Assembly (NCBI GenBank): GCA_049975705.1
Contig: JBNGCS010000007.1
Location: 1 to 64,000, forward strand
Direction: 5' to 3'
Length of the DNA stretch: 64,000 bases
DNA from: Candidatus Bipolaricaulaceae bacterium
GTDB lineage: Bacteria > Bipolaricaulota > Bipolaricaulia > Bipolaricaulales > Bipolaricaulaceae
A program made the position numbers and the translations under genes. Each line of letters begins with the position of its first letter. Position 1 is the first letter of the stretch. Shown here one piece after another: positions 2,535 through 54,688 of this stretch. The notes beneath the pieces were generated by a model. That model was not told the origin of the DNA and ran no database searches. It saw only the letters and a list, made by a program, of their open reading frames with translations.

Positions 2535-3092
2535 TCACGCCGATACGGCCCGCTGGATGCGACGCATCAGTCGTCTGGAACACCTGCTGTCCGTTGATGC
2601 TGAACACCAGGTTCGACCCATCGGCGACGACGGCCAGCCGGTTCGTTCCCGGCCCCTGTGGATCGCATCGTCTCCGTCAAATTGGTCAGTGAGGTTGGTC
2701 CACGTGCCCCCGGCGATCTTCCTCAGCCGGAACGTGCCGACCGGGCTGACGTAGAATTCGTAGTAGTTGTCCCAGTCGACGAACCGGAAGATGAGCCCGG
2801 CGGCAGATTTGTTGTCGGCGCCCGAGATGTGCTCCACATCAGCCTTCAGCTCGAAGTCGTCGAATTGGCCAGCATCGCTGCTATTCACTGTCCCGGAGTG
2901 ATCGGGCTGGCATTCAAGGTGGTACTTGCCGCCAGCGATCCACAGGCGGAAGGACGTGTAATCGCCGACCACCCACTTGTTTCCGTCTGCTTGCGAGAAC
3001 CGCTCCTCGTAAAGGAGTTGCGCTCCCGGAGGGCCGAACAGGGAACACCCACTGAGCAGCACCCCACCCAACAAGACAGCCCACAGCATCGC
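2535..3092 (-). CDS. secreted lipoprotein, DUF1080/LamG-like fold; C-terminus looks frame-disrupted
   Basis: Internal start MLWAVLLGGVLLSGC (lipobox LSGC); body resembles 3-keto-disaccharide-hydrolase-like beta-sandwich proteins; last ~50 aa low complexity. Confidence 0.4.
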   Translation of the reverse strand, partial: AMLWAVLLGGVLLSGCSLFGPPGAQLLYEERFSQADGNKWVVGDYTSFRLWIAGGKYHLECQPDHSGTVNSSDAGQFDDFELKADVEHISGADNKSAAGLIFRFVDWDNYYEFYVSPVGTFRLRKIAGGTWTNLTDQFDGDDAIHRGRERTGWPSSPMGRTWCSASTDSRCSRRLMRRIQRAVSA

Positions 3093-3302
3093 CTTGCGCG
3101 CGCCTACCTCCTCCAGAGCCGGTGGCCGCCATCTTACCGCGGCCGAACATCGCTGAGAACCGGGTGGGAACAAGTGGCTGCACTATTTGAGTTGCGGATA
3201 GCCCGGTCTGGGTACAAGAATCGATTGCTTCTAGGGGTTGGGGGAAGGAAGCCCCCCGGGCACCGCTCCCGATCGAGGGTGATATGCACTACACTGGGTT
3301 TC

Positions 3303-5309
3303 GTGGCGGCGAAAGCACTCTCGTGGCTAGCGGAGCTGAATCCCGCCCAGCGGGAGGCGGTGACCCATGGGGAGGGTCCGCTCCTGGTCATCGCCGGCGC
3401 GGGTACTGGTAAGACGCGCACCCTAGCCTACCGGGTGGCGTACCTTATCGCTGGAGGGGTTGCGCCGGAGCGGATCCTTCTGCTGACCTTCACCCGGCGT
3501 GCAGCGGAGGAGATGTTACGGCGTGCCGGGGGGGTGATTCGGCAGACGGCGGCAGTGCGCGAACAAGTGTGGGGGGGGACGTTCCACTCCATCGCCAACC
3601 GTCTCCTACGGGTCCACGCCGGTCGCATAGGGCTGAACCCAGAGTTCACCGTGCTCGATCAGGCCGATGCGGAAGACCTCATGGGCATGGTCCGTCACGA
3701 TCTTGGGCTGGCCTCGCGGGACAGGCGATTTCCCCGCAAGGGGACCTGTCTGGCCGTGTATTCCCGGACCGTGAACGGCACCGAAGGCCTGTCCGCGGTC
3801 CTGGCCCACCACTTCCCCTGGGTCGCGGGGTGGGAAGAGGAGCTTCACACGCTGTTTAGGCGCTATGTCGAGCGCAAGCAGCGGCTGAACGTCCTCGACT
3901 TCGACGACCTCCTCCTGTACTGGCGGGAAATGGTGTCCGACCCCCAGCTTGCCGGGCGGCTTTCCGACCTATTCGACCACATCCTCGTCGACGAATATCA
4001 GGACACGAACCGCTTGCAGGCCCTCATCCTGCAGGGGATGCGCACGGGGAGGGACAACTTGACGGTTGTAGGGGACGACGCCCAGAGCATCTACGCCTTC
4101 CGGGCGGCAACGGTGCGCAACATCCTCGACTTCCCCAGCCAGTTCCCCGGGACCCGCATCGTCACCCTGGAGGAGAATTACCGGTCCACGATGCCGATCC
4201 TCGAGACGGCCAACGCCCTTATCGCCGCCGCCCGGGAGCGGTATACGAAGAGCTTGTGGTCCCGCCGGCGGGCCGGGCTCCGCCCGGCCCTGGTTACCTG
4301 CTGGGATGAGGGGAGTCAAGACGACTTCGTGGTCAGTCAAGTTCTTGCCCTATACGAGGAGGGGATTCCCCTGCGGCGGCAGGCAGTCCTGTTCCGCGCT
4401 GCCCATCACTCTGCCTCTCTGGAGGTGGAGCTGGCCCGGCGGGGGATCGCCTTCCACAAGTACGGGGGACTCCGATTCGTGGAGACCGCGCATATCAAAG
4501 ACGCGCTCGCCTTCCTCCGGGTCGCGGAGAACCCGCGGGACGAGCTGGCCTGGTTCCGGGTGCTGCGCTTGCTGGAAGGTGTCGGGCCCGCCACCGCCTC
4601 CCGGGCGCTCGAGCACGTCTACGCGGCAGGGGGCGATCCCCGCCGCATCGGGCAGTTCCCCGGGCCGCGGGCTGCCCGGGGGGACCTGGCCCGGCTGGGC
4701 GACCTGTTCGGGAGGTTAGTGACAGAACCGCCGCTCCCCGCCCAACTGGAGCTGGTGCGCCGCTTCTACGAGCCGTTCGTGGAGCGGACCTACGACCATC
4801 CCCAGGCCAGGATTCGGGACCTGGAGAGCCTGGAGCAGATTGCGTCCGCCTATCGCTCGCGGCGCAGTTTCCTGGCGGATTTGCAGCTCGATCCGCCGCG
4901 GTCCACGGCCGACCTCGCCGGTCCGCCCCACGAGGACGACGACTGGCTGGTGCTGTCCACCATCCACTCGGCCAAGGGCTGTGAGTGGGATGCGGTGTAC
5001 GTCATCCACGCCGCCGACGGCTTCCTACCTGCGGACCTCTCTGCCGGATCCGCCGAGGATATCGAAGAGGAGCTCCGCTTGACCTACGTGGCCCTCACCC
5101 GGGCCCGGGACCGGCTGTTCGTCACCTGGCCTCTGCGCTACCACTACCGGCGGCGGAGGGCGTCCGACGACCATGGTTACGCACAACTGTGCCGGTTCTT
5201 CACGCATGAGGTGCGAGCCACGATGGACGAAATGTCAGCCGGAGCTGATCCTGAGTTCTGGCCGCCACAGCTGGACGTCCGGGAACGGATGCGGGCGATG
5301 TGGGACTGA
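3303..5309 (+). CDS. uvrD: UvrD/PcrA-family ATP-dependent DNA helicase
   Basis: Walker A AGAGTGKT, motifs TFHS, DEYQDT, VGDDAQSIY, YRS, ALTRAR; start set at GTG giving VAAKALSWLAELNPAQ (about 10 aa before the conserved LNP.Q motif); upstream ORF extension is low-complexity. Confidence 0.8.
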   Translation: MAAKALSWLAELNPAQREAVTHGEGPLLVIAGAGTGKTRTLAYRVAYLIAGGVAPERILLLTFTRRAAEEMLRRAGGVIRQTAAVREQVWGGTFHSIANRLLRVHAGRIGLNPEFTVLDQADAEDLMGMVRHDLGLASRDRRFPRKGTCLAVYSRTVNGTEGLSAVLAHHFPWVAGWEEELHTLFRRYVERKQRLNVLDFDDLLLYWREMVSDPQLAGRLSDLFDHILVDEYQDTNRLQALILQGMRTGRDNLTVVGDDAQSIYAFRAATVRNILDFPSQFPGTRIVTLEENYRSTMPILETANALIAAARERYTKSLWSRRRAGLRPALVTCWDEGSQDDFVVSQVLALYEEGIPLRRQAVLFRAAHHSASLEVELARRGIAFHKYGGLRFVETAHIKDALAFLRVAENPRDELAWFRVLRLLEGVGPATASRALEHVYAAGGDPRRIGQFPGPRAARGDLARLGDLFGRLVTEPPLPAQLELVRRFYEPFVERTYDHPQARIRDLESLEQIASAYRSRRSFLADLQLDPPRSTADLAGPPHEDDDWLVLSTIHSAKGCEWDAVYVIHAADGFLPADLSAGSAEDIEEELRLTYVALTRARDRLFVTWPLRYHYRRRRASDDHGYAQLCRFFTHEVRATMDEMSAGADPEFWPPQLDVRERMRAMWD

Positions 5310-5350: not shown

Positions 5351-6226
5351 TCACTTCTCGGGAGGCGCGACTGTGGCCACCTCCCACAGGAGGATCGTCT
5401 TGTCGCTTGAGCCAGAGGCGAGGATCTTCCCGTCCGGGCTGAACGCCACCGACTGCACATCCTTGCTGTGACCGACCAGGCTGCAAACGCCCGTTCTGCC
5501 TGCTACGTCCCAGAGGATGATCCGCCGGTCGGCGGACCCCGAGGCCAACAGTTCCCCGTCTGGCCGGAAGGCCACCGTCGTGACGCTCCATGTATGCCCG
5601 CTCAAGGTGTGCACCAGGCGGCCAGTGGAAACGTCCCATAGCTTCACGGATCCGTCGTTGGAACCCGAGGCCAGCAGGGAGCCACGGCCGTCGAAGGCCA
5701 CGCTGCGCACCTGGCCGGTGTGGCCGGTGAGCACGCGTACCACCTGGCCGGTGGCCACATTCCAGATCCAAATCGTGTGGTCATCACAGCCCGCCGCGAC
5801 CAGTCTGCCGTCCGGGCTGAACGCCACCGAGCGGACTGCGCCGCTGGGACCGGGCAGAGCTCGCCTCTGCCCACCCGTGGCCGGCCACAGTTCAACCGTC
5901 CCTTGAGCCGTGGCCAGCGCAAGCAGATCTCCGTTTGCGCTGACCGCCAGGGCCATGACCGCGCCGCCGCTGACGATCCGCTGCCGCTCCCGGCCGGATG
6001 CCACCTCCCACAGTCGCACCGTCTTGTCCTCGGATCCGGAGTACAGGATCGCCCCGTCGGGGCTGAATGCCACCGACCACACAGTGCCCGTGTGTCCCTC
6101 CAGGGCTCGATGGGGGAGTTCCGCCACCTCGGGCGGCTCCACCCGCTGTCCGAAGCCGACCAGGCCCAGTCCCACGGCGAACGCGGCCGCCCACCACCCA
6201 AACCTCCTCCCGCTGTCATTGCTCAT
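5351..6226 (-). CDS. WD40-repeat beta-propeller protein with N-terminal signal/TM segment
   Basis: Seven tandem repeats ending WD/WN (SGSEDKTVRLWEV, SGSNDGSVKLWDV etc.); ATG at 6226 preceded by GGAGGTG; hydrophobic N-terminus WWAAAFAVGLGLVGF. Confidence 0.75.
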   Translation of the reverse strand: MSNDSGRRFGWWAAAFAVGLGLVGFGQRVEPPEVAELPHRALEGHTGTVWSVAFSPDGAILYSGSEDKTVRLWEVASGRERQRIVSGGAVMALAVSANGDLLALATAQGTVELWPATGGQRRALPGPSGAVRSVAFSPDGRLVAAGCDDHTIWIWNVATGQVVRVLTGHTGQVRSVAFDGRGSLLASGSNDGSVKLWDVSTGRLVHTLSGHTWSVTTVAFRPDGELLASGSADRRIILWDVAGRTGVCSLVGHSKDVQSVAFSPDGKILASGSSDKTILLWEVATVAPPEK

Positions 6227-6381
6227 CGCCGCCCACCTCCAGGCCACATTCTGTACTCCATTCCACTCGGCCTGGGCAACTGCGTAGGTCTTTGCGGCAG
6301 AAACTAATCCTCCCCGCCGGGCGACTGGACCTGCCGGCGCCAGGGTCCCAGGCAGCCGTCCCCCCCCGCCGGCCAGGGTGC

Positions 6382-7554
6382 CTACAGGGTCAACCTAGCC
6401 AGCTGCTTTAGGACGCGGGCCCGGATGTCCTCTGGCGGGGGAAGGGATCCGACCAGACGCCCGGCATCGATGAGGGGCACCAGCAGGGGCGGCATCTCCT
6501 CCCCACACTGGGGGCAGGCGGGTGCGGGCTGCCCCACGAGCTGAACCCGCCCAGTCTGGCACTGCAGGCAGCGGAAGACCTGTTTGGCCCCCCCGCGCTT
6601 TCCCCGCTTGGCGAAGGGTTTTCCATCCACTTCCACGATGTCTAGGGCGAAGTTGATCACCGGAGCGGAGGCGATGGACGTGCCCACCCCGTAGCCAACC
6701 ACCAGGTCGCGGGTGCGCAGGATCTCCTGTTCGTCGACTCCCCCGGAGAGGAACAGCCCCACGTCGGAGCGGCCCCGCGCGTCCAGCTCCCATCGGACTT
6801 CCGCCAGGATCTCTCGCATATCGCCTCGGCGGGACGAAGGGGTGTCCAGGCGGACGGCGGCCAGGGCCTGCCCCAGGGACTCAGCCGCGCGCACCGCCTC
6901 GGTCTTCTCGTCGTACAAGGTGTCCACCAGGCACACCCGCGGTACGTCAGCGGGGACGTATCGGTGGAAGAGCTGGAACGCGACCGGTGGGTCCCCCACG
7001 GTGAGGATCAGAGCGTGGGGCATGGTGCCCACAGGCTCCAGCCCCAGCAGACGAGCGGATAGGACCACGGCCACCCCGTCACAGCCGCCCACGTAGGCGC
7101 TGCGATCGATCATCGGGGCCAGGCCGGGGTGCATGCGGCGGGCGCCAAAGGAGATCAGCTGCCGGTCGCCGGCGGCCAGGCGACAGCGGGCGGCCTTGGT
7201 GGCCACCCCTGAAGCCTGGCAGAGGAGGCCGAGCATGGCCGTCTCGTACTCGGCGAACGCGGTGTACTCCCCTTCCAGGCGGACCACGGGCTCCCCCAGC
7301 CGGAAGACGGTCCCCTCGGGCATGGCGTGGACCCGGCAGTCCGCCCCGGCCATCAGGTTGGCCAGCTCGTCTACGCCGGCCAGCACTGCCCACCGGTAGT
7401 CGTCCGGGAAGGAGCTGGCGGTCACCTCGGCCACCACCTGCCTGCGGATCCCCGCTGCCTTCAGTATCTCTACCGAGCGGGGGAAGTAGACGTCCACCAC
7501 CTGGAGGTCCTTGATCTCCTCGGGCGTGGCCATGTGGAATTCGCGTTTCATCAT
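6382..7554 (-). CDS. pncB: nicotinate phosphoribosyltransferase (archaeal/Thermus type) with C-terminal Zn-ribbon
   Basis: NAPRTase family similarity across 390 aa; CxxC...CxxC near C-terminus. Confidence 0.75.
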   Translation of the reverse strand: MMKREFHMATPEEIKDLQVVDVYFPRSVEILKAAGIRRQVVAEVTASSFPDDYRWAVLAGVDELANLMAGADCRVHAMPEGTVFRLGEPVVRLEGEYTAFAEYETAMLGLLCQASGVATKAARCRLAAGDRQLISFGARRMHPGLAPMIDRSAYVGGCDGVAVVLSARLLGLEPVGTMPHALILTVGDPPVAFQLFHRYVPADVPRVCLVDTLYDEKTEAVRAAESLGQALAAVRLDTPSSRRGDMREILAEVRWELDARGRSDVGLFLSGGVDEQEILRTRDLVVGYGVGTSIASAPVINFALDIVEVDGKPFAKRGKRGGAKQVFRCLQCQTGRVQLVGQPAPACPQCGEEMPPLLVPLIDAGRLVGSLPPPEDIRARVLKQLARLTL

Positions 7555-7590
7555 CCCTCCTTGGGCCTGGCGGCCGCCGGCCCGCGTCGG

Positions 7591-8130
7591 CTACACCACT
7601 TCCGCTCCCACCAGCCGCTGGATGTGCCGCAGGGCCCAGCTGTGGTCATCCTCTGACAGCCCGATGACCAGCCCTTGGGGCACCACCACTTGATAGCCGA
7701 GCTGGCCGGCGGTGAGCCCGGTGAGGAGCACGCACACTTCGGTGACCAGCCCGGTGAGGATCACCCGCGCCACGTTGTGTTGGCTCAGCTTCTGGTCTAG
7801 GTCCGTCTCCAAGAAGGCGTCGTAGTGCTGCTTGGCCACCAGCAGGTCGGCCGGCTCGGGCTGCAGCTGCTCGACGACTTCGCTGCCGGGGGTATCTCGG
7901 ACGGCATGGGCTGGCCAGTGGGCGAACTCAGGGTCGTCGGGGGCGTGCCGGTCGCACGCGTACACCACCGTGGCCCCGCTGGCCCGGGCTCGCTCCAGAA
8001 ACGCGGCGATCCGGGCGGCCAGTTCCGTCGCCCCCGGAACTGCCAACGGCGCACTGGGGAGGACGAAGTCGTTCAGCATGTCCAGCACCAGCACACCAGT
8101 CCGGTCGTCCAGGTACCTGTCGCTGTTCAC
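7591..8130 (-). CDS. pncA: isochorismatase-family hydrolase, probable nicotinamidase
   Basis: VLVLDMLNDF and ...VCVLLT motifs of cysteine-hydrolase/isochorismatase family; immediately upstream of pncB on same strand. Confidence 0.7.
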   Translation of the reverse strand: MNSDRYLDDRTGVLVLDMLNDFVLPSAPLAVPGATELAARIAAFLERARASGATVVYACDRHAPDDPEFAHWPAHAVRDTPGSEVVEQLQPEPADLLVAKQHYDAFLETDLDQKLSQHNVARVILTGLVTEVCVLLTGLTAGQLGYQVVVPQGLVIGLSEDDHSWALRHIQRLVGAEVV

Positions 8131-10339: not shown

Positions 10340-10780
10340 TCAGTTGTCCGGCATGGCCAAGGCCTCGTATTCGTCCTCCAACAGGCGCTTGTGGCGGCGC
10401 TCCTCCTCGACGAGGGCGGAGAATATCTGGCTGGCCGGGCCTCCCAGGCGGCTCAGTCCCTCGTACAAGGCCACCGAGGCCTGTTCCCGCTTCATGGCAA
10501 CGGCCAGGGCTTCCGGCAGGCCCATGTCCGGACGAGCCTTCACCTCCACCAGCAGGTCGGACAGTTTGAGGTCCGGCGGGGCCGCCCCCTGGGCGATGAG
10601 CTCCTCGGGCTTGATGCGGGACAGCTTCTCCACGTGCCCGTGTTCCCATCCGGCCAGCTCCTGGAACAGCCGTCTCACCCCGGGGTCAGCGGCCTTTGCC
10701 GCCCAGTCTCGGTAGTAGCTCTCCGCCTCCTTCTCCTTGGCCACCGCGAACTCGAGCGCCTTGTTGAGCCCCTGTTGCAC
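10340..10780 (-). CDS. rubrerythrin-family ferritin-like diiron protein (no rubredoxin domain)
   Basis: Four-helix-bundle E..E..H motifs (EAESYY, AGWEHGH, EEERRHKRLLEDEYE); start reassigned to GTG 5 nt after GGAAGGAG; upstream 100 aa of track ORF are P/S/R-rich noise. Confidence 0.6.
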   Translation of the reverse strand: MQQGLNKALEFAVAKEKEAESYYRDWAAKAADPGVRRLFQELAGWEHGHVEKLSRIKPEELIAQGAAPPDLKLSDLLVEVKARPDMGLPEALAVAMKREQASVALYEGLSRLGGPASQIFSALVEEERRHKRLLEDEYEALAMPDN

Positions 10781-10907
10781 GATCGCTCCTTCCCACTCAA
10801 TTTCCTGGTCCGCTGTTTCGCTCACCGCTTGTGTTTCCGGCGACGGCGGTCCTCCAGCTCCGGATGAGGAAAAAGAGGGGGGACTTCGGTCCCCCCTCCG
10901 AAGCCGG

Positions 10908-11300
10908 TCAGGCGAGCTCCACGCGTCGTTCCGCCTCCCACAGCCCGTGGATGTTGCAGTAGGCCACCGCGTGCAGCGTCCCCGGTTCTGTCGTTTTGAA
11001 GGCAAATGTGACCTCATGATGGGTGTGAACTGGGCCCTCGTTGGGACCGGCCACCGCCTCGCCGTGGGCGGCGAATTGGAACTTGCCCAGTTCGTAGGCA
11101 AACTTGTGTCCGTCCGGGGAGAAATAGGCGGCGATCCACCGGATGTGGTGCTCGGTGGTGTTGGGATGGGCGACCGCCTTCCCCAGGCTCACCTTGACTG
11201 GGGTGAACTCGCCGGCCTTCACCCGGTCAGGACACTCGATGACCGGGACGTGCTTCTCCTTCTGCCAGTCGGCCGCTTGGATCTTCTCGCCGATGGACAC
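10908..11300 (-). CDS. superoxide reductase (1Fe-SOR, neelaredoxin/desulfoferrodoxin catalytic domain)
   Basis: GTG start after AAGGAGGTGA; HVPVIE and CNIHGLW iron-ligand motifs of SOR family; 130 aa. Confidence 0.8.
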   Translation of the reverse strand: MSIGEKIQAADWQKEKHVPVIECPDRVKAGEFTPVKVSLGKAVAHPNTTEHHIRWIAAYFSPDGHKFAYELGKFQFAAHGEAVAGPNEGPVHTHHEVTFAFKTTEPGTLHAVAYCNIHGLWEAERRVELA

Positions 11301-11982
11301 CTCGGGTCACCTCCTTGGCGTACAGCTTCCGGTGGCAGAACCACCAATCGTAGCACTCTACTGCGCCGGACTTGGCTTCCTCCAGCCGCTTGTGAGCACC
11401 TGACTCCGAGCCGGGCGGGGGCACAATGGCCCGGTCGCCGATGAGCTCGTTCTGGGGCCAGCCTGCAGGCAGGGCGACTTTCTCCCGGTCCGCAGTCTGC
11501 AGGGCCTGCAACAGCCGCAGTATCTCGTCCATGTTCCGGCCCACGTTCAACGGGTAGTAGATCATCGCCCTGACCTTGCCCTGGGGATCGATTATGAACA
11601 CCGCCCGGACGGTCTGGGCCTCAGCGGCCTCAGGGTGCAACATCCCGTACAGGGCGCCTATCTTCCCCGTGTTGTCGGCGATCACCGGAAACGGGATCTT
11701 CACGCCCAGCTCGTCCTCGATCCACTGCACCCACTTGATGTGGGAGTAGATTTGGTCGATGGACAGGCCAACCAGCTCGGCTCCAAGCTGTTTGAACTTC
11801 TCGCTCCGCTTGGCAAAGGCCACGAACTCCGTGGTGCACACCGGGGTGTAGTCGGCTGGGTGCGAGAACAGCACGACCCACTTGCCCGCGTAGTCCTTGG
11901 GGAAGTCCATGGGGCCGTGGGTGGTGCTGGCCCGAAAGGCCGGGGCCGGGTCTCCGATCAACGGCATCCGTCGCTCTTCCAC
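11227..11982 (-). CDS. 1-Cys peroxiredoxin (Prx6/AhpC-TSA family)
   Basis: PVCTTE peroxidatic-Cys motif, C-terminal CYDWWFC arm typical of archaeal-type Prx; GTG start 5 nt after AAGGAGG; overlaps SOR by 74 nt. Confidence 0.8.
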   Translation of the reverse strand: MEERRMPLIGDPAPAFRASTTHGPMDFPKDYAGKWVVLFSHPADYTPVCTTEFVAFAKRSEKFKQLGAELVGLSIDQIYSHIKWVQWIEDELGVKIPFPVIADNTGKIGALYGMLHPEAAEAQTVRAVFIIDPQGKVRAMIYYPLNVGRNMDEILRLLQALQTADREKVALPAGWPQNELIGDRAIVPPPGSESGAHKRLEEAKSGAVECYDWWFCHRKLYAKEVTRGVHRREDPSGRLAEGEARPGHRVS

Positions 11983-12006
11983 TTCTTCCTCCTTGTTGTC
12001 AAACCG

Positions 12007-12795
12007 TCACTTCAGCACACAAACGGCCGCCGGCTGGCGGAGCACCAGCGCCAGTGTCTCCGACACGGTGAACTCCAGCCGATCTCCGGCTGGGCCGATG
12101 AAGCCCACGGAAAGGTCCTGGCCGAGGACGATGGCCCCGGTGGGCCGTCCCACTGCCAACAGCACCCCGCCGCTCTCCAGAACCGGCGCCTTGTGCACGC
12201 CGTCCTGGACCACGGTCTGCAGGTGCTCGAGTTCGGTCCGGTTACCGCGGGGGTAGAGTCGCAGCAGGCGGTTGTAGCGGTCGGGGGCCAGGGCCAGGGC
12301 GTAGGGCCCGTGGAAGCCGGCCCGGTCCAGCGCGCTGATCGCTCTGATGATGTCCTCGGCCGCCTCGCCGGGTGCGTCCCACGCCGCCAGGGGCTGCTCG
12401 GCTGCGCCCGCGGCGGTGAGCAATCCCGGAGCTGCCTGTGTCCCCCAGAAGATCAGTTCGTCCTCCCGGCGGGCACACGTTCGGGCAGCCTGGACCGCTG
12501 GGGTGGTGTCCAGTGGTACCCCGTCGCGCTCGTGGGCCGCCAGGTCGCGCTTGGCCAGCGTGAATCCCGCCCGGACGGTGCTCACGGGGACCACTGCCCC
12601 GCTGACCAGCCCCTCATCGTCCTCGACATCCGGGAGCGGGACGGCCTTGAGGCCGAGACCGTACGGCCCCTCGACCTCCAGCAGCCGCCGTCCAGCCAGG
12701 ACGCCCTTGGCGGCTTCGATCACCGCCTGGTCCAACGCCGCCCAGCTCTCCGGGGCCAGGGGAGCGTCGCCGCGCGCCAAGTACTTGTTGGCCAT
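12007..12795 (-). CDS. family 1 encapsulin nanocompartment shell protein (linocin M18-like, HK97 fold)
   Basis: 262 aa; alignable along its length to T. maritima encapsulin (..LEVEGPYGLG.., ..GAIVLGQDLSVG.., C-terminal ..VCVLK); ATG 7 nt after GAGGAGG; 8 nt downstream of EncFtn stop. Confidence 0.85.
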   Translation of the reverse strand: MANKYLARGDAPLAPESWAALDQAVIEAAKGVLAGRRLLEVEGPYGLGLKAVPLPDVEDDEGLVSGAVVPVSTVRAGFTLAKRDLAAHERDGVPLDTTPAVQAARTCARREDELIFWGTQAAPGLLTAAGAAEQPLAAWDAPGEAAEDIIRAISALDRAGFHGPYALALAPDRYNRLLRLYPRGNRTELEHLQTVVQDGVHKAPVLESGGVLLAVGRPTGAIVLGQDLSVGFIGPAGDRLEFTVSETLALVLRQPAAVCVLK

Positions 12796-12806
12796 CTGTT
12801 GCCTCC

Positions 12807-13169
12807 TCAGTCGCGCAGCGACCCCAGCGTGGGCTCCTCGCCCGGGCCGCCCGCCTCGTTCGCAGTCTCCTGGCCGCCTTCGGCCAGCTCGTCCACCTCC
12901 TCGGCTCCCTGAGCGAGGTAGCTGTCTTCGTCACCGGTGAGGATCTGCAGCAGGCGGGTGAACTCCCCGACGTGTACCCTCTCCTCGTCGGCGATGTCAA
13001 CGAACACTTTCTTGGCCAGCGGGTGGTCCGTGGCCTCGGCGTGGGCCATGTACAGGTGGACTGCCTCCTCTTCAGCGGCGATGTCCAGCCGTATTGCCCT
13101 GATCAACTCCTGTTTGGTCAACTTGCGATCTGGAACCTTACCCGAGAACGGATTGAGGAACTCCGGCAT
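12807..13169 (-). CDS. encapsulated ferritin-like protein (EncFtn) cargo with C-terminal encapsulin targeting peptide
   Basis: 120 aa; EncFtn metal-site residues (AAEEEAVHLY.., DIADEERVHVGEF); acidic linker then C-terminal ..EEPTLGSLRD matching the (S/T)xGSLxx family-1 cargo-loading peptide; ATG after AAAGGAGGGGAG. Confidence 0.8.
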   Translation of the reverse strand: MPEFLNPFSGKVPDRKLTKQELIRAIRLDIAAEEEAVHLYMAHAEATDHPLAKKVFVDIADEERVHVGEFTRLLQILTGDEDSYLAQGAEEVDELAEGGQETANEAGGPGEEPTLGSLRD

Positions 13170-13181
13170 CTCCCCTCCTTT

Positions 13182-13685
13182 CTAGAAAGCGCGGCACTTG
13201 TTCCTAGCTGCCCCGCAAACCGGACAGAACTCCGGTGCTTCCCCGGCCACAGTGTAGCCGCACACCGGGCAGATGTACACGGTTCCCAGATCCACATCCT
13301 CCCCCGCTTGGGCCGCGTCTTTGGCCTCCCGGTACATGCGGGCGTGGATCTTCTCCGCTTCCATGGCGAAGTGGGTGGAGCGGGCCGCCCCGGGCACCCC
13401 CTGGAATTGGGCTGTGTTGTTGTAGACGGGGTACATCTCCTCCACCTCGAAGGACTCGCCATCGATGGCTACCTGCAGGTTCGCTGGTGTGCTCCGGATC
13501 ATGCCCAGCTCCCGGTAGTGGTTGGTGGCGTGTACCTGCTCCGCGTAGGCAATGGCACGGAACAGCCGGGCCAGGTTGAGTTTCCCCTCCCGCTCGGCCA
13601 CCTCGGCGAAGATCAGGTAGCGCATGTGGGCCTGTGCCTCCCCCGCAAACGCGGCCCGCAGGTTGTCCTCCGTCATCTTGGGCAT
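13182..13685 (-). CDS. rubrerythrin (diiron domain + C-terminal rubredoxin-like CxxC..CxxC domain)
   Basis: Start reassigned to ATG 5 nt after AAGGAGG (MPKMTEDNLRAAF..); ferritin-like E..E..H motifs; C-terminal CPVCGY...CPVCGA. Confidence 0.85.
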   Translation of the reverse strand: MPKMTEDNLRAAFAGEAQAHMRYLIFAEVAEREGKLNLARLFRAIAYAEQVHATNHYRELGMIRSTPANLQVAIDGESFEVEEMYPVYNNTAQFQGVPGAARSTHFAMEAEKIHARMYREAKDAAQAGEDVDLGTVYICPVCGYTVAGEAPEFCPVCGAARNKCRAF

Positions 13686-13803
13686 GGTACCTCCTTGCCT
13701 CCCAGGCGGTGGCCCGCCCCCGCAGCGACCCCAGGCCGGGTGGGGCGCTTGCGCTGCCCCGCCTTCCCGGATACTGGCGCCTCTAGGGGACGGTTTTTCA
13801 TCC

Positions 13804-14355
13804 CTACCGCAGGAACTTGGACACAAATGGGGACGTATCGCCGCGGCGCAGGAAATGGCCGGATGGCCCCTCGCCCAGGAACTCAGAAAACCACGACTCG
13901 TGCTCGATCTCCTCGTGAAGTATGGCTAGGGCCAGGTCATACGTGCGATGGTCCTTGCCACTGGTCAGGTTGCAGATGTCCGTATACCCCCGCACCGCGC
14001 ACCGCTCGGCCTCCACGAGCACCCGCAGGATTGCCCCAACGTCTTGGGGTTCCTGGGGCAGCTTGGCGGGTCTGCACGCCGACATGTTGTGGAACGAGAC
14101 CATGTCGTCCGGAAGCTTCCCTCCCAGCTCGTAGATCCGGGGCACCAGGGCCTCGAAGTGGTTGCGGTCCTCAATCCGTGCCGTCTCGGCGATCTCTTTG
14201 ACCGTCTCCCCCTCCATGCCGATCAGGTTCGACCGGAGGATTGTGTAGTAGTAGTAGGTGGTGAGTTCCGCCGCCGCGTTCTTCACCAGAAGCTCCAGGA
14301 GCCTATCCACATCCACCCCCGCCCGTTCCACCATCTCTCTTGCTACCCTTCCCAT
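13804..14355 (-). CDS. DPS-like (DPSL/thioferritin) ferritin-superfamily peroxide-resistance protein
   Basis: 183 aa starting MGRVAREMV (ATG 6 nt after GGAGG); near-colinear with Sulfolobus DPSL (TTYYYYTILR, GMEGE, EIAE.ARIEDRNHFE, RIYELGG, EAERCA, DPRTYDLA, ILHEEIEHE, GxPSGHF); start overlaps Fur stop by GGAGGTTAGCATG. Confidence 0.8.
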   Translation of the reverse strand: MGRVAREMVERAGVDVDRLLELLVKNAAAELTTYYYYTILRSNLIGMEGETVKEIAETARIEDRNHFEALVPRIYELGGKLPDDMVSFHNMSACRPAKLPQEPQDVGAILRVLVEAERCAVRGYTDICNLTSGKDHRTYDLALAILHEEIEHESWFSEFLGEGPSGHFLRRGDTSPFVSKFLR

Positions 14356-14356
14356 G

Positions 14357-14821
14357 CTAACCTCCGTCTCTCTCCGTCCCTTGGCAGGCTGGGCACAGAC
14401 CCTCGAACACCAGTTGGTGGGCCGCAACCTGAAACCCGCCATTCAGCTTCACCCGGTCCAGGTCATGGCGGTACGGAACGTCGATATCGTAGACCCGCCC
14501 GCAGCTCAAGCAGCGGAAGTGATAGTGGGGGGAAGTGTTGCCATCGAATCGATCTGGGCCGGCCCCGTGGAGTTCCAGCACAGCGCCCTCGCGGGCTAGC
14601 CCGCGCAGGGTACGGTACACGGTGGCCAGGCTGATGTCCTCACCTTTCTCCCGCAGCGCGTGATACATGGCCTCGGCCGTCGGGTGATCCTTCCGTTGCC
14701 GGAGGGCTTCCACGATTGCCCGCCTCTGCCTCGTCCACCGCCAGCTACTCACCTTGCTGTTCATGCTATTCATTCGCATTATACTCCATGGGCACGGCCG
14801 CGCAACCTCAACAGGTGACAC
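14357..14821 (-). CDS. Fur-family metalloregulator, PerR-like by context
   Basis: R.T.QR..IVEAL DNA-binding helix, HYHF...C..C and C..C structural Zn motifs; start ambiguous: GTG 14821 versus ATGs at 14779/14773/14764 lying inside/after a TATAAT box (possible leaderless start). Confidence 0.7.
   Translation of the reverse strand: MSPVEVARPCPWSIMRMNSMNSKVSSWRWTRQRRAIVEALRQRKDHPTAEAMYHALREKGEDISLATVYRTLRGLAREGAVLELHGAGPDRFDGNTSPHYHFRCLSCGRVYDIDVPYRHDLDRVKLNGGFQVAAHQLVFEGLCPACQGTERDGG
14775..14783 (-). promoter_or_regulatory. second copy of TATAATGCG box, inside/just before Fur-like gene N-terminus
   Basis: minus-strand GGAGTATAATGCGAATGAATAGCATG; ATG overlaps the box end, suggesting a leaderless or very short-leader transcript. 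Confidence 0.35.
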
Positions 14822-14824
14822 CTC

Positions 14825-16039
14825 TCAGCGGAGATGGTGATAGTCGCCGGCTGCAAGGCGGGCCAGTCTATCCTCCACCGGGGCGCCGGCTTTGATCAGC
14901 GACTCAGTCGGCGCAATTCCCTCGGGATCTCCCAACAGGATCGCCCCCACCAGGCGGCCATCTCGGACGACGAACTTGCGGTATACGCCCCGCTCAAGCT
15001 CGGCGGTGCGCACCTCGGCGCCCGGGCCCCCCTGCGGCTGGGTCTCCCCTAGGCAGGCCAAATCCACGCCGACCACCTTCAGCCGGTTGGCCACCACCGT
15101 GCCCTGATAGGGGGTGCTTTGGGGCTCGGCCATGTTCTGCGCGGCCAGCTCACCCTGCTCGCGGGCCGCGGGGATGATCCCGTATACTCGCCCTTGCCAC
15201 TCGGCCGCGTCGCCGCAGGCGTACACATCCGGCGCCGATGTCTGCAGGAAGTCATCCACCACGATGCCCCTGGCCGTGTGCAGACCGGCCTCGGCAGCCA
15301 GTACGGTCCGGGGGCGGACGCCGGCGGCCATCACCACCAGCTCGGCGGCCACCTGCTCTCCATCAGTCAGCCTTACCCCGCGCACCTCCTGGTCGCCCAT
15401 CAGCTCCTGACACTGAACCCCGGTCCGCACGTGTATGCCCATCTCCGTCACCACGCTCATCAAGGCCTGGGAGCCCTCGCGGTCCAGCTGTCGCGGCAGC
15501 AGCCAGGGGGCCAACTCCAATACAGTGACTGGTAGGTTCCATGCCCGCAGGGCCCGGGCCACTTCCAGGCCCAGCCACCCCCCGCCGACCACCGCGGCAG
15601 CACGCGCCCGGGGGGCTCGGGTGCGGATCCGGTGAGCGTCGGCCGCCGTGCGTAGGGTGAACACGCCTTCCAGGTGGGTGCCGGGGAGAGGGGGAACGGC
15701 GGCCTGGGCGCCGGTGGCGAGCAGCAGCCTATCGTATGGCAATTCCTCGCCGCTGCTCAAAGTGACCCGCCGGCGGGCGAGGTCCAGCGCCACCACCGCC
15801 CCGCCCGTCCGCAAGTCGATGTCTTGCCGCTCATACCAGCTGGTGTCGAATGGGGTGATGTCCGCCAGCTCAGCGGTGCCGGCGACCACGGAGATGAGCC
15901 CCGGGCGCAGGTAGTACGGGGTGGGCTCGGCCTCGGCCAGGGTCACCGCGGCTGCGGGCACCAACGCCCGCAGCTTGCGCGCGGCGGTCACCCCGGCCAG
16001 ACCGCCGCCGATCACCAAGAAGCGCGGGGCCTTAGCCAA
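14825..16039 (-). CDS. NAD(P)H:rubredoxin oxidoreductase (FAD/NAD(P)-binding pyridine nucleotide-disulfide oxidoreductase)
   Basis: Two GxGxxG/A dinucleotide folds ([19 protein letters not shown]); start placed at TTG 16039 ([13 protein letters not shown]) because upstream ATG lies inside the rubredoxin gene; 8-nt overlap with rubredoxin stop. Confidence 0.7.
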
Positions 16040-16193
16040 GCTTCTCGAACATGTCCTTGGGCGCCCCGCACTCGGGACACACCCAGGACTCAGGGAGGTC
16101 TTCAAATGACGTCCCCGGGTCGATGCCCTGGGAGGGGTCCCCCTTCTCAGGGTCGTACACCCAACCGCAGACGGCGCATTCCCACTTGTCCAC
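16032..16193 (-). CDS. rubredoxin (53 aa), not in the supplied ORF track
   Basis: Hand-translated: GTG start after GGAGGTGAGACGAC; [53 protein letters not shown]; two CxxCG knuckles with conserved W/Y/F core. Confidence 0.8.
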
Positions 16194-16221: not shown

Positions 16222-16230
16222 CGCATTATA
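16222..16230 (-). promoter_or_regulatory. TATAATGCG -10-like box 31 nt upstream of rubredoxin start
   Basis: minus-strand CTCGTTATAATGCGGAGAC...GGAGGTGAGACGACGTG; identical 9-mer also at 14775..14783. Confidence 0.4.
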
Positions 16231-48621: not shown

Positions 48622-48926
48622 GGCTTGCCGCAGGAGGAGTGGAGGGGAGCAGGGTTTCCCTTGCCCATGCCGATTCGAACGGCAGCCTTCTGGGCCGGGC
48701 GCAGTCCCGTCGGCAGGAGGGAACCGACGGACGCGGAGACCGACCTGTGGGGCTATAAACCCCCGTCTGGCTGGCACCCAGCCACGGACTAGCCGCCTCG
48801 CTGGGCGGCTCTGCTCCCCCCCGGCGTGCTGATGTGTCTCCGGCGGGCGGGGCTTTGGCTGACGAGCCTCTGCCCTTGGGCTGGCTTGTTGGCCGAATGG
48901 GGATTATAGCTGGGGGGGAGGTCCCG

Positions 48927-54602: not shown

Positions 54603-54688
54603 TGCCGAGGGTGGGACTTGAACCCACACGGGCACAATGGCCCACTGCCCCCTCAAGACAGCGCGTCTGCCAATTCCGCCACCTCGGC
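54603..54688 (-). tRNA. tRNA-Leu (anticodon GAG), long variable arm
   Basis: Hand-folded: acceptor GCCGAGG/CCTCGGC, D-arm GCG..CGC, anticodon stem CTGTC/GGCAG with loop TTGAGGG (GAG), extended variable arm, T-arm GTGGG-TTCAAGT-CCCAC; 86 nt; CCA not encoded. Confidence 0.8.

Follow-up and report, generated by a model that had tools for sequence, protein, structure and literature searches.

Among solved structures, the closest relatives of the ferritin-like encapsulin cargo (EncFtn) considered here are M. xanthus EncC (7s8t) and a P. furiosus protein (5n5e), and those of its shell protein (Enc) include M. xanthus EncA (2e-41) and the T. maritima encapsulin (3e-25). In P. furiosus a functional link between rubrerythrin (Rbr) and encapsulin has been reported (10.1101/2025.03.19.643997). 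Linkage of encapsulin to oxidative-stress genes is found in numerous further anaerobes, yet it is barely mentioned in the searchable literature; the components are known, and their linkage looks undescribed there.

Gene content and layout of the island

The locus lies in a 64-kb stretch of DNA (the window) of an uncultured anaerobe from the candidate phylum Bipolaricaulota, where ten open reading frames run head to tail on the minus strand at 10340-16193, as originally observed. Neither flank is related to it: the left one is a convergent VIT-VWA gene with its end at 10329, the right one a divergent operon for ABC sugar uptake that begins at 16389. The features, all on the minus strand, are the following (paired values are NCBIfam score/cut-off):

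16222..16230, minus: P1, promoter-like -10 and discriminator TATAATGCG, 29 nt upstream of the rubredoxin start
16032..16193, minus: rubredoxin (Rd), 53 aa, CxxC...CxxC, PF00301 89 bits
14825..16039, minus: NROR-like NAD(P)H:rubredoxin oxidoreductase flavoprotein, 404 aa from TTG 16039, Pyr_redox_2 214 bits
14760..14806, minus: P2, promoter-like TTGCGC-16 nt-TATAAT plus operator-like block, from sequence conservation
14357..14764, minus: Fur-family regulator, PerR-like, 135 aa from ATG 14764, PF01475 93 bits
13804..14355, minus: DPSL, Dps-like dodecameric iron cage protein, 183 aa, NF009990 321/158, NF040955 301/250
13686..13803, minus: GC-rich DPSL-Rbr spacer, 118 nt, ribosome-binding site (RBS) AAGGAGG at its 3' end
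13182..13685, minus: rubrerythrin, P. furiosus type, 167 aa, diiron plus C-terminal rubredoxin-like domain, PF02915 87 bits
12807..13169, minus: EncFtn, encapsulated ferritin-like cargo, 120 aa, NF058679 125.6/90
12007..12795, minus: family 1 encapsulin shell protein, 262 aa, PF04454 231 bits
11227..11982, minus: peroxiredoxin (Prx), archaeal ApTPx/PhPrx type, 251 aa from GTG 11982, NF009668 348.7/211 over residues 2-220
10908..11300, minus: 1Fe superoxide reductase (SOR), neelaredoxin type, 130 aa, GTG start, PF01880 116.8 bits
10874..10899, minus: intrinsic terminator, 11-bp G+C-rich stem, 4-nt loop, UUUUU, from a pattern scan
10340..10780, minus: gene 10, rubrerythrin-domain-only diiron four-helix protein, TM1526-like, 146 aa from GTG 10780, PF02915 51 bits

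The ten gene identities of the original prediction all hold: every family assignment clears the Pfam gathering scores, and none failed at the HMM step. Curated NCBIfam cut-offs are also cleared by six of the ten proteins (Rd, DPSL, EncFtn, encapsulin, Prx and the SOR domain), NROR, Rbr, the regulator and gene 10 having been placed without one. The label "1-Cys peroxiredoxin" has to be dropped, since the protein is of the archaeal type with C-terminal CxDWWFC cysteines and is no plain 1-Cys enzyme.

The junctions had been described as tiny or overlapping, which is true of six of the nine: Rd and NROR overlap by 8 nt (if NROR starts at TTG 16039), DPSL starts 1 nt past the regulator stop with its RBS (GGAGG) inside the end of the regulator gene, the Rbr-EncFtn, EncFtn-Enc and Enc-Prx gaps are 12, 11 and 24 nt, and Prx and SOR overlap by 74 nt. 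The other three are wider: 60 nt between NROR and the regulator (measured to the conserved ATG 14764), 118 nt between DPSL and Rbr, and 127 nt, with the terminator within, between SOR and gene 10. With two promoter-like sites, the 118-nt spacer and a strong terminator before gene 10, the picture of one tightly packed unit does not stand.

The 9-mer of P1 occurs exactly twice in the 64 kb (0.03 expected), once in each promoter-like site, and the whole window has only four TATAAT hexamers. An RBS, GGAGGTGA, lies between P1 and Rd, and the L169 locus of a relative has TATAAT at the equivalent position. A good -35 element was looked for at P1 and none was found; P1 and P2 have in common only the -10 and the discriminator. 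Rd scores 93 against NF045768 (cut-off 90) and is 81-85% identical to its counterparts in loci L168 and L169. NROR, which directly follows Rd in the window, L168, L169 and L138, carries a Rubredoxin_C domain (49.5 bits), has 1xhc and 3klj as its closest solved relatives and reaches none of the NCBIfam equivalog cut-offs. The proposed NAD(P)H-NROR-Rd-SOR/Rbr reading is upheld.

Solved relatives of DPSL are 7stw (E=9e-76), the S. solfataricus DPSL 2clb (E=5e-60) and 2vzb (E=2e-14). Two iron cages, DPSL and EncFtn/encapsulin, are indeed present. In the spacer that follows it, TATAAT was sought and is absent, and the long predicted hairpin is no better than those of shuffled sequence (z -1.48); a promoter or weak terminator could be hidden there. 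Rbr has a RUBY_RBDX domain (36.5 bits) and matches the sequences of 3mps and 1nnq (the latter identical to 9qg1) at E=7e-69 over residues 4-164.

Prx aligns with 6itz and 2cv4 (E about 1e-77) up to CYDWWFCxKKL. Homology stops at 11323, leaving a 31-codon tail (11230-11322): all seven relatives stop 0-4 codons after CH(K/R)KL, and in the window KL is followed at once by TAC (Tyr). The 74-nt overlap with SOR exists in the sequence but, on this comparison, is a read-through tail from a lost Prx stop codon. Just ahead of the SOR GTG stands AAGGAGGTGA, and the SOR domain scores 114.3/61.9 against TIGR00332. The terminator begins 9 nt past the SOR stop and folds at -24.8 kcal/mol (z -3.07 against shuffles). 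Behind it, gene 10 has an RBS (AGGAG) and no loading peptide, matches TM1526 only (1vjx, E=4e-5), and has a 72% identical orthologue near the island of L171.

The island in related genomes and the encapsulin cassette

Eight of the genes (Rd, NROR, regulator, DPSL, Rbr, Prx, SOR and the diiron protein) belong by orthology to an island that seven other Bipolaricaulota loci also carry, with the shared order (Rd-NROR)-regulator-(DPSL)-Rbr-Prx-(ferritin)-SOR:

L168: Rd-NROR-FUR-DPSL-Cytb5-Rbr-Prx-Ftn-SOR
L169: Rd-NROR-FUR-Rbr-Prx-Ftn-SOR
L167: FUR-DPSL-Rbr-FtnL-Prx-SOR
L166: FUR-Rbr-Prx-Ftn-SOR
L170-L172: similar to L166-L169

Identities to the window proteins are 75-85% for Rd, 57-72% for Prx, 72-75% for Rbr, 85-88% for DPSL and, in five of the seven relatives, 52-80% for SOR; L171 and L172 have instead a 2Fe-type desulfoferrodoxin, 38-40% identical to the window SOR. 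At the site of the 118-nt spacer, four of the seven carry a small cytochrome-b5-like gene. Judged by these orthologies, the island is inherited within the phylum.

The encapsulin pair has a different history. Within 10 kb of the seven relative islands there is no Linocin_M18 domain, and EncFtn-Enc is absent there. In the window the pair separates the ancestral Prx ribosome-binding site from the start codon of Prx and lies exactly between the two: the spacer from Rbr to EncFtn, TAGAAAGGAGGGGAGATG, is the same as that from Rbr to Prx in relatives (L169: TGAAAGGAGGGGAGGATG), and a second RBS follows Enc, ahead of the Prx N-terminus MEERRMPLIGD (GTG 11982), which agrees with the MQERxLPLIGD of relatives. 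As read from these junctions, the pair is, in this lineage, a secondary and clean insertion into an older operon. Of the eight Bipolaricaulota island types sampled, a single one has the pair, which makes it dispensable for the island. A classical ferritin lies between Prx and SOR in five of the seven relatives and is missing from the 64-kb window; since the L170 island has neither ferritin nor encapsulin, "replacement of ferritin" is no strict swap.

The source is a metagenome-assembled genome, and an assembly chimera could produce such an arrangement. This is scarcely credible here: independent Logan assemblies from two runs (L081 and L082) show Rbr joined to EncFtn and Enc to Prx in the same way in a diverged relative (Enc 84% and Rbr 73% identical), the junction sequences run on into the orthologous spacers of relatives, and GC3 is uniform across island and flanks. 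The encapsulin itself fills the NF041155 model (223.9/100, positions 1-261 of 261) and is 100% identical to an NCBI protein named for a Candidatus Bipolaricaulaceae bacterium, in accord with the anaerobic high-GC host that had been predicted.

A genuine insertion may still be an accident, that is, a horizontally acquired cassette that landed among genes to which it has no functional connection. In its favour, the pair is missing from the seven other islands, and its nearest relatives, mostly from Anaerolineae (about 63% identity), are in another phylum, at only 60-65% identity; in methanogens, moreover, the pair stands alone in 42 loci. This explanation is nevertheless improbable. Strand, spacing and ribosome-binding sites are preserved and both reading frames are intact, the cassette has the GC3 of host genes, and it is kept in a relative at 84% protein identity although the adjoining Prx gene has decayed there. 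In a census of 90 de-duplicated non-archaeal loci, scored for eight partner families, 60 have at least one partner on the same strand, linking the cassette to SOR, Rbr, Rd, NROR and PerR in varying gene orders; 13 have six or more of the eight, and L138 alone has them all. SOR is the commonest partner (51/90), and of the 34 genome loci with enough upstream DNA, 19 have it immediately upstream of EncFtn. The same families surround homologous encapsulins in dozens of independent loci; the clustering is far beyond chance.

In Anaerolineae the cassette lies, as a rule, within clusters that are headed by PerR and made up of these families. SOR is 53-71% identical in loci of this type, while the "DPSL" and "Prx" matches are only 34-41% identical and belong to other subfamilies (an ordinary ferritin/Dps and a selenocysteine Prx), which makes this a recurrence of families and not of orthologues. 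The arrangement is absent from textbooks, as had been said, but not unique, being common in genomes of the Anaerolineae type.

Adjacency alone, together with the known multi-cargo encapsulins of M. xanthus (EncB, EncC), might suggest that SOR, Rbr, Prx, DPSL and gene 10 are packaged too, but this is very unlikely. EncFtn, with its C-terminal loading peptide TLGSLRD (encoded at 12810-12830), is the only reading frame in the window with such a C-terminus, and the motif is found in 115 of 130 EncFtn homologues against none of the partner homologues (SOR 0/51, Rbr 0/27, Prx 0/14, DPSL 0/13, gene 10 0/13).

The regulator and its putative control region

The regulator start at ATG 14764 is conserved and NCBI's own call (P0241) is likewise 135 aa, longer frames being possible from 14779 or 14821; orthologues in Bipolaricaulota/Acetothermia genomes are 55-68% identical. 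At P2 the promoter-like site is followed by a 15-nt operator-like block, AATGAATAGCATGAA, which overlaps the regulator start codon and is kept, as TTAWAATGCRAATGMWWATCATGAA, ahead of the orthologous regulator in the seven other Bipolaricaulota loci, the sequence further upstream having diverged. All eight loci, the window among them, keep a promoter along with the block. A weight matrix, built without L172, finds exactly one site in each of the eight loci, that of L172 included. The window copy is the most degenerate, with two mismatches to the ATGAT-N-ATCAT core. The leading perR of Anaerolineae-type loci has a PerR box of the B. subtilis type overlapping its promoter, and in one PerR-EncFtn-Enc operon among them this box is perfect.

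Is the regulator a peroxide sensor, or an iron-sensing Fur that responds to iron level and switches what is mainly an iron-storage and iron-homeostasis unit, in which the ROS enzymes are passengers? For the latter speak the two or three iron-cage genes in the operon, the NCBI name "Fur family transcriptional regulator" and the recognition helix ATVYRTL, with Arg, as in Fur, where Bacillus-type PerR has Asn. The window, moreover, contains no PerR box within three mismatches; it contains no Fur box within three mismatches either. Among NCBIfam models, two for PerR score highest (99.5 and 93.6 bits), both below their cut-offs and both above the Fur models (71.7 at most). B. subtilis PerR is the best match among solved relatives, and its ligands H37, D85, H91, H93 and D104 and four cysteines are all kept; both discriminating regulatory-site carboxylates are Asp (PerR/Irr) and not Glu (Fur/Zur/Mur/Nur). 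Arg and Asp occur together in all 118 homologues with a locatable helix motif among the best 120, so Arg is no Fur marker in this clade. Finally, the B. anaerobius orthologue is annotated PerR by one source, and superoxide and peroxide enzymes dominate the operon in all eight Bipolaricaulota loci. An iron-sensing Fur is thus unlikely, though less remote than the alternatives weighed above, and a PerR-like repressor is preferred.

That the island stands "under one Fur-family regulator" holds as to the regulator's family; its single control is inferential and finds no support for Rd-NROR or gene 10. Only one operator-like motif is conserved, that at the promoter of the regulator itself, and it therefore reaches the genes from the regulator through SOR at most.

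Proposed model

Transcription from P1 would yield Rd-NROR, and P2 would give a regulator-DPSL-Rbr-EncFtn-Enc-Prx-SOR transcript with a leader of a few bases that ends at the terminator after SOR; gene 10 would depend on read-through or on an unrecognised promoter of its own. The metal-loaded PerR-like repressor would bind the conserved block over its own start site until metal-catalysed oxidation by H2O2 released it and de-repressed the operon. Electrons would then pass from NAD(P)H through NROR and Rd to SOR, which turns superoxide into H2O2, and to Rbr, which reduces H2O2 to water, while Prx would clear peroxides with a reductant encoded elsewhere. Fe2+ shed by damaged Fe-S enzymes would be oxidised and stored by DPSL (the small cage) and by EncFtn in its shell (the large cage), and with Fe2+ locked away the second Fenton reactant would be gone. 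EncFtn would be the only cargo, the redox enzymes working outside the shell.

Taken together, these comparisons indicate that the island is probably the Bipolaricaulota version of an anaerobe oxidative-stress operon with an inserted EncFtn cassette, in which a peroxide-sensing repressor would couple ROS removal to iron sequestration, a functional link, already proposed in the original prediction, that comparative genomics strongly backs.

Gene families, cargo and transcription units

Ten consecutive open reading frames occupy the minus strand between two sets of genes unrelated to them, a convergent gene for a VIT-VWA protein that ends at 10329 and a divergent ABC sugar-uptake operon that starts at 16389. 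The original prediction had described a ten-gene oxidative-stress island here, and this observation is confirmed: all ten products have Pfam matches to the families then named, and six of them also score above NCBIfam curated cut-offs. The genes and sites to which the text refers are the following:

10340-16193 (-): the island, in the order rubredoxin (Rd), NROR, regulator, DPSL, rubrerythrin (Rbr), EncFtn, Enc, peroxiredoxin (Prx), superoxide reductase (SOR), gene 10
16222-16230: P1, promoter-like site before Rd
14760-14806: P2, promoter-like site before the regulator
12807-13169 (-): EncFtn, the cargo
12007-12795 (-): Enc, the family 1 encapsulin shell protein
11227-11325 (-): end of the Prx frame

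The NCBIfam assignments are those of Rd (NF045768, score 93, cut-off 90), DPSL (NF009990, 321 against 158; NF040955, 301 against 250), SOR, Prx, EncFtn (NF058679, 125.6 against 90) and Enc, which lies directly downstream of EncFtn. The cysteines near the ferroxidase site of DPSL align with those of 7stw, and together with these scores they place the protein in the 'thioferritin' group. SOR matches the neelaredoxin domain (TIGR00332, 114.3 against 61.9) over residues 8-129 of 130 and is of the 1Fe type, without the N-terminal desulforedoxin domain, and the two-domain dfx_rbo model stays below its cut-off. Prx (NF009668, 348.7 against 211) is of the archaeal type (ApTPx/PhPrx), with the peroxidatic cysteine in PVCTTE and a C-terminal CxDWWFC in the alignment to 6itz. 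Enc covers the full NF041155 model (223.9 against 100) and matches PF04454 with 231.2 bits, so that it belongs to the HK97-fold family 1 encapsulins (Linocin_M18 / encap_f1).

The flavoprotein NROR is without a curated equivalog in NCBIfam, and its assignment combines a Rubredoxin_C domain (Pfam, 49.5 against a threshold of 25.9), the adjacency to Rd and its top two solved relatives, 1xhc and 3klj, the NROR proteins of P. furiosus and C. acetobutylicum. Rbr has the Pfam domains PF02915 and PF21349 and aligns at E=7e-69 with the P. furiosus rubrerythrin sequence common to 1nnq, 2hr5 and 9qg1 (PF1283-type), and its score of 95.3 lies below the cut-off of 200 of the NCBIfam rubrerythrin equivalog. 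Gene 10 encodes a protein with a rubrerythrin domain only, whose sole solved relative is T. maritima TM1526 (E=4e-5). The GC3 of the island (0.77-0.88) is similar to that of the flanking genes, and the composition of the window carries no detectable sign of recent foreign origin.

The Rfam scan of the island gave no match, and the sole match in the window at the gathering threshold is one tRNA gene at 54603-54688 (-). Elsewhere in the window (6382-8130, minus strand) an isochorismatase-family (nicotinamidase-like) gene adjoins a gene for a quinolinate/nicotinate-type phosphoribosyltransferase, which suggests an NAD salvage pair; beside it lie genes for a WD40-repeat protein (5351-6247) and a UvrD-type helicase (2658-5309).

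The C-terminus of EncFtn (...EEPTLGSLRD) carries the loading peptide TLGSLRD and is the only such open reading frame end in the window. Among related loci the loading motif is present in 115 of 130 EncFtn proteins and in none of the homologues of SOR (0/51), Rbr (0/27), Prx (0/14), ferritin/DPSL (0/13) or gene 10 (0/13). The notion that redox enzymes are additional cargo of the shell was rejected on these grounds, both for the window and for the related loci; by this motif, EncFtn is the only predicted cargo and the redox enzymes would act outside the shell.

The spacing of the genes is as follows.

Junctions between successive genes of the island
Rd/NROR: 8-nt overlap
NROR to regulator: 60-nt gap, with a promoter-like site
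Regulator to DPSL: 1 nt
DPSL to Rbr: 118 nt, GC-rich spacer
Rbr to EncFtn: 12 nt
EncFtn to Enc: 11 nt
Enc to Prx: 24 nt
Prx/SOR: 74-nt overlap
SOR to gene 10: 127 nt, intrinsic terminator at its beginning

Six of these junctions are tiny or overlapping, as had been claimed of the whole island, and three (60, 118 and 127 nt) are not. The picture of one tight operon was thus overstated, given the promoter-like site in the 60-nt gap, the 118-nt spacer and the terminator 3' of SOR, which has the textbook form of an 11-bp G+C stem followed by UUUUU (dG -24.8 kcal/mol, z -3.07). The hairpin predicted in the 118-nt spacer is no better than that of shuffled sequence (z -1.48).

The hexamer TATAAT occurs four times in the 64-kb window, and two of the copies (16230-16225 and 14783-14778) shortly precede Rd and the regulator, respectively, both extending to the 9-mer TATAATGCG, for which 0.03 copies are expected. 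The other two copies are located at 45999 (+) and 48903-48908 (-); in this genome (66% G+C), -10 hexamers without a mismatch are very rare. Apart from TATAATGCG, P1 has nothing in common with P2, and a repeat search across the island returned chance GC-rich matches only and no operator in common. Control of the whole island by a single regulator, as first proposed, was also an overstatement. The likely units are Rd-NROR transcribed from P1, with possible read-through, and the regulator through SOR transcribed from P2 and ended by the terminator; gene 10 is likely a loosely attached third unit.

The 74-nt overlap of Prx and SOR is present in the sequence, but it corresponds to read-through, with a tail of 31 residues outside the Prx family. 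Residue 220 (...CYDWWFCHRKL) is where the family model of Prx and the sequences of solved archaeal Prx proteins end, and all seven Bipolaricaulota orthologues stop 0-4 codons after KL. At 11227-11325 the window has lost this stop codon and reads TAC (Tyr) immediately after KL, and the frame therefore extends 31 codons into SOR. The TAC may be real or may be a single-base error in the metagenome-assembled genome. The start of SOR is sound, since its GTG stands behind AAGGAGGTGA and its N-terminus resembles those of its homologues.

The regulator and its candidate operator

The regulator has the Fur fold (Pfam PF01475, 93.2 bits) and its best solved relative is the PerR of B. subtilis. In the alignment to 2fe3, its CxxC...CxxC corresponds to the Cys4 zinc site of that protein (C96, C99, C136, C139), and H37, D85, H91, H93 and D104 are all conserved, with Asp and not Glu. 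An Asp at the last regulatory position marks PerR and Irr, and a Glu marks Fur, Zur, Mur and Nur (PMC8638967). The second feature that singles out PerR is an Asn in the DNA-binding helix H4 (PMC8638967), where the regulator reads ATVYRTL, with Arg. Among its top 120 homologues, the 118 with a locatable motif all combine this Arg with the PerR-type Asp; they form a consistent Arg-plus-Asp clade, and the Asn/Arg position was consequently dropped as a separator of PerR from Fur within it. The best scores against the curated PerR equivalogs are 99.5 (cut-off 180) and 93.6 (cut-off 200), for which reason the protein is filed as PerR-like and not as a member of a curated equivalog. In accordance with its clade, the window has no match within three mismatches to the Bacillus-type PerR box (TTATAATNATTATAA), and the Fur-box scan of the window gave no match either. 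The leading PerR of the Anaerolineae-type loci has the Asn, and in these loci the TTGACA-N17-TAnAAT promoter coincides in part with a PerR box that has 0-2 mismatches; L007/L088 contain a PerR-EncFtn-Enc operon with a perfect box.

With PerR regulons such as that of B. subtilis PerR, the window has in common a Fur-family regulator with a Cys4 zinc site and a predicted His3Asp2 peroxide-sensing site, its position at the head of peroxide- and iron-detoxifying genes and an operator-like element over its own promoter. It differs from them in the Arg of the recognition helix, the absence of a Bacillus-type box and the presence of an encapsulin in the presumed regulon. In clostridia and sulfate reducers, PerR controls rbr, sor, rd and nror genes.

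In all eight Bipolaricaulota loci the regulator is preceded by the block TTAWAAT-GCRAATGMWWATCATGAA, that is, a -10 element plus 19 nt including the start codon, and the sequence 5' of this block varies freely among them. A conserved palindrome-like element, (A)ATGAT-N-ATCAT(GA), overlaps the start codon, and AATGAATAGCATGAA is the candidate operator block for the regulator. A weight matrix built from seven sites, with the metagenome locus L172 left out of the training, finds exactly one site per locus, L172 included, and one in the 64-kb window (14774-14760), whose copy is the most degenerate. The conserved block would be an autoregulatory operator centred on ATGAT-N-ATCAT, and the 13 nt between the -10 element and the ATG would leave a leader of only a few bases. 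The 5-1-5 core ATGATNATCAT has 11 matches in the window against 5.2 expected, is not enriched beyond the P2 site and otherwise falls in distant coding regions, so that no wider regulon was drawn.

A Fur-family gene is also found directly 5' of DPSL in Anaerolineae (L160) and TA06 (L163). In the Anaerolineae genome it is preceded, at 7240-7320 of L160, by a TTGACA promoter and then by GATAATGATTATA, a Fur/PerR-box-like palindrome that would fit autoregulation of the Fur-DPSL pair. DPSL itself (window 13804-14355; proteins P0122-P0240) is unusually conserved, with 4861 matches at E<=1e-40 and 82-88% identity to entries from Methanofollis, Bathyarchaeia, TA06, WOR-3, Planctomycetota, Deltaproteobacteria and Promethearchaeota.

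Insertion of the cassette into a Bipolaricaulota operon

The search for relatives of the island was anchored on the regulator, its least conserved gene, the orthologues of which (55-68% identity) reside in genomes named Bipolaricaulota or Acetothermia.

Islands of Bipolaricaulota relatives (FUR, regulator; Cytb5, cytochrome-b5-like gene)
L168, Acetothermia 64_32-like: Rd-NROR-FUR-DPSL-Cytb5-Rbr-Prx-ferritin-SOR
L169, Bipolaricaulaceae: Rd-NROR-FUR-Rbr-Prx-ferritin-SOR
L167, Ca. Bipolaricaulis anaerobius: FUR-DPSL-Rbr-ferritin-like-Prx-SOR
L166, Bipolaricaulota sp. J31: FUR-Rbr-Prx-ferritin-SOR
L170, metagenome contig: FUR-DPSL-Cytb5-Rbr-Prx-SOR
L171 and L172, metagenome-assembled genome and metagenome contig: FUR-DPSL-Cytb5-Rbr-Prx-ferritin-...-SOR

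Across the seven loci, identity to the proteins of the window is 75-85% for Rd, 52-64% for NROR, 57-65% for the regulator, 85-88% for DPSL, 72-75% for Rbr and 57-72% for Prx. SOR is 52-80% identical in five loci, whereas its counterpart in L171 and L172 is a 2Fe-type desulfoferrodoxin with 38-40% identity, and gene 10 has a 72% identical orthologue in L171. None of the seven relatives has an encapsulin within 10 kb of its island. The small cytochrome-b5-like gene lies between DPSL and Rbr in four of them (L168 11010-11231; L170 11001-11252; L171 10905-11177; L172 2927-3211), in the place of the 118-nt spacer of the window, and L171 and L172 have a hybrid-cluster protein (Prismane) gene upstream of SOR.

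The EncFtn-Enc pair of the window is located between Rbr and Prx, and both of its borders can be read. The spacer that follows the Rbr stop, TAGAAAGGAGGGGAG-ATG, is the Rbr-Prx spacer of the relatives (TGAAAGGAGGGGAGG-ATG in L169) and now serves EncFtn; after the Enc stop there is a second AAGGAGG, and then a Prx start, MEERRMPLIGD, that matches the MQERxLPLIGD of the relatives. Judged from these junctions and the gene orders, the island is ancestral and the EncFtn-Enc cassette is a clean in-operon insertion into a phylum-wide operon. Such a junction pair might also arise if the assembly were chimeric. This explanation was rejected, since two independent Logan assemblies of the closest relative (L081, L082) have both insertion junctions as in the window, with identities of 84% for Enc, 88% for EncFtn and 73% for Rbr; the insertion thus predates the split of the two lineages. 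In the same assemblies the Prx that follows Enc (L081 1667-2031, and likewise L082) is a 55-residue remnant with an internal deletion, followed in L081 by a truncated rubredoxin-like start (MEKWVCTV...), which indicates that the island is decaying or rearranged there, with Rbr-EncFtn-Enc intact.

A classical ferritin of 163-166 residues is encoded between Prx and SOR in five of the seven relatives and is absent from the island and from all 64 kb of the window. The idea that the encapsulin was exchanged for this ferritin at one spot had to be softened, because the ferritin of the relatives stands between Prx and SOR and not between Rbr and Prx, and because L170 has neither of the two.

Recurrence of the linkage, known systems and proposed mechanism

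The nearest encapsulins (57-65% identical) belong mostly to Anaerolineae, other Chloroflexota and methanogens. The ten proteins of the window were compared by tblastn with 77 loci from metagenomes and 80 from genomes, the latter limited to one per species. The 42 methanogen loci contain the EncFtn-Enc pair alone. Of the 38 bacterial genome loci, 25 have SOR on the strand of the pair; in 34 the upstream DNA is long enough to judge the neighbouring gene, and SOR directly precedes EncFtn in 19 of these. Removal of duplicates left 90 non-archaeal loci, which were scored for eight partner families: 60 have at least one, 13 have six or more, and one, L138, has all eight, in the order PerR-Rd-NROR-Prx-Rbr-SOR-ferritin-EncFtn-Enc-diiron protein on one strand, with assignments confirmed by Pfam.

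PerR-led EncFtn-Enc clusters of Anaerolineae-type genomes and metagenome contigs were found in L138, L126, L142, L150, L025, L042, L063, L064, L085, L095, L113, L119 and L131. These Anaerolineae-type clusters resemble the window in family content and differ from it in gene order, with the regulator first and SOR adjoining EncFtn. Moreover, their PerR is Bacillus-like, with the Asn and the PerR box that the window lacks, their Prx belongs to another subfamily and is often a selenoprotein, an ordinary ferritin/Dps (PF00210) takes the place of DPSL, and additional genes encode a ferredoxin, DJ-1 and a flavodiiron protein. The recurrence is therefore best described as one of families, as judged from these assignments, and the uniqueness first attributed to the arrangement does not hold; the original interpretation stands in substance and is overstated on this point, as it is on operon tightness and single-regulator control. 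The presence of the same cassette in functionally equivalent clusters of two phyla, in different orders, argues strongly for selection on the linkage.

In related encapsulin clusters the codon of the peroxidatic cysteine of Prx is TGA (FTFV-TGA-PTE) in 12 of 19 cases and TGT or TGC in the other seven (L138 6058-6759; also L001, L002, L025, L042, L063/L122/L123, L064, L126, L142 and L150); those with TGA probably encode PrxU-type peroxiredoxins with selenocysteine. The extra genes of L138 (8136-8399, 9168-9380 and 11602-12816) encode a DJ-1/PfpI protein, a small 4Fe-4S ferredoxin immediately 5' of EncFtn and a flavodiiron protein 3' of the diiron protein. The ferredoxin recalls, by analogy, those of IMEF encapsulin operons; none of the three proteins has a homologue in the window.

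The components of the window have precedents in several known systems. Genes for all four members of the anaerobe NAD(P)H-NROR-rubredoxin-SOR/rubrerythrin pathway (P. furiosus, Clostridium acetobutylicum) are present, but in the window they are clustered with those for a regulator, two iron cages and Prx. In P. furiosus, SOR, Rd and Rbr are adjacent, with NROR elsewhere. As in the EncFtn (Flp) family 1 systems of T. maritima, R. rubrum, H. ochraceum and M. xanthus (EncA/B/C), the cassette consists of two genes with the cargo upstream of the shell, a C-terminal loading peptide on the cargo and ExxH ferroxidase motifs; in contrast to the two-gene EncFtn operons, it is enclosed by the other genes of a probable oxidative-stress transcription unit of seven genes. 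A 2021 census of encapsulin operons is silent on superoxide reductase, rubredoxin and peroxiredoxin, and describes archaeal Flp-fusion encapsulins as often accompanied by ferritin-like proteins or rubrerythrins (PMC8346489), and a 2024 review of EncFtn does not discuss gene neighbourhoods (PMC11202242). In the literature searched, 'encapsulin' and 'superoxide reductase' appear together only in a 2025 preprint on P. furiosus (10.1101/2025.03.19.643997). Each component, PerR-type oxidative-stress clusters and two-gene EncFtn operons are already known, and no description of the union of such a cluster with an EncFtn encapsulin could be found in that literature.

The preprint reports OSIT, in which encapsulin particles are found inside oxygen-induced rubrerythrin tubules (10.1101/2025.03.19.643997). 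The P. furiosus system has the same Rbr subtype as the window (the 1nnq/9qg1 sequence), and in both it is paired with a ferritin-like/encapsulin system for iron mineralisation, a role that is predicted for the window. The Rbr gene of the window is immediately upstream of EncFtn-Enc, whereas the Rbr and Enc locus numbers of P. furiosus are distant (PF1283 and PF1192; 10.1101/2025.03.19.643997). Its ferritin-like domain is fused to the shell protein, while the window has separate EncFtn and Enc genes. Given that preprint and the common Rbr subtype, the Rbr-EncFtn-Enc adjacency is worth testing. A proximity of the DPSL and NROR genes of P. furiosus to its encapsulin gene plays no part in the argument, as a search for literature support for it found nothing usable, and Pyrococcus is not among the best 120 protein matches of DPSL.

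Beyond the observed gene content, orthology, insertion, signals and cargo specificity, family knowledge allows the steps of a mechanism to be proposed. Electrons would flow from NAD(P)H through NROR to Rd, and from Rd both to SOR, which would convert superoxide to H2O2, and to Rbr, which would reduce H2O2 to water, a pathway summarised for P. furiosus (10.1101/2025.03.19.643997). Prx would remove peroxide with a thiol reductant encoded outside the window, and DPSL and the encapsulated EncFtn would oxidise and store Fe2+, so that H2O2 and Fe2+ are kept apart. The PerR-like repressor would keep P2 shut until H2O2 oxidises its metal site. It is conceivable, if improbable, by analogy with P. furiosus, that Rbr and the EncFtn encapsulin are physical partners in bacteria as well, with O2-triggered assembly of Rbr around or beside iron-loaded shells and SOR-derived H2O2 as the mineralisation oxidant, in a PerR-type-controlled 'anti-Fenton organelle' of anaerobes. 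Under the same low joint expectation, this partnership would be the counterpart of the oxygen-induced tubular compartment of P. furiosus, and the cassette would have been fixed directly behind a PF1283-type Rbr gene for this reason.

The island is not a new kind of system, as its components and its logic (the removal of reactive oxygen species and of Fe2+) are established; what the present analysis adds is the anatomy of the insertion, the recurrence of the linkage in Anaerolineae-type genomes and the candidate operator. EncFtn encapsulins are well described structurally, and when they act in cells, and with which partners, is largely a matter of conjecture. The window and its relatives give a concrete comparative-genomic answer for anaerobes: the cassette travels with SOR, rubrerythrin, rubredoxin, NROR, peroxiredoxin, Dps/ferritin and a PerR-type repressor, the comparison points to a specific regulator and a candidate operator, and rubrerythrin stands out as a possible partner of the encapsulin, in line with the P. 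furiosus preprint. In one lineage, the cassette was spliced into an existing operon of these very genes, in a version without the classical ferritin usual in its relatives, which supports the idea that the encapsulin is a stress-induced iron sink, equivalent to a ferritin.
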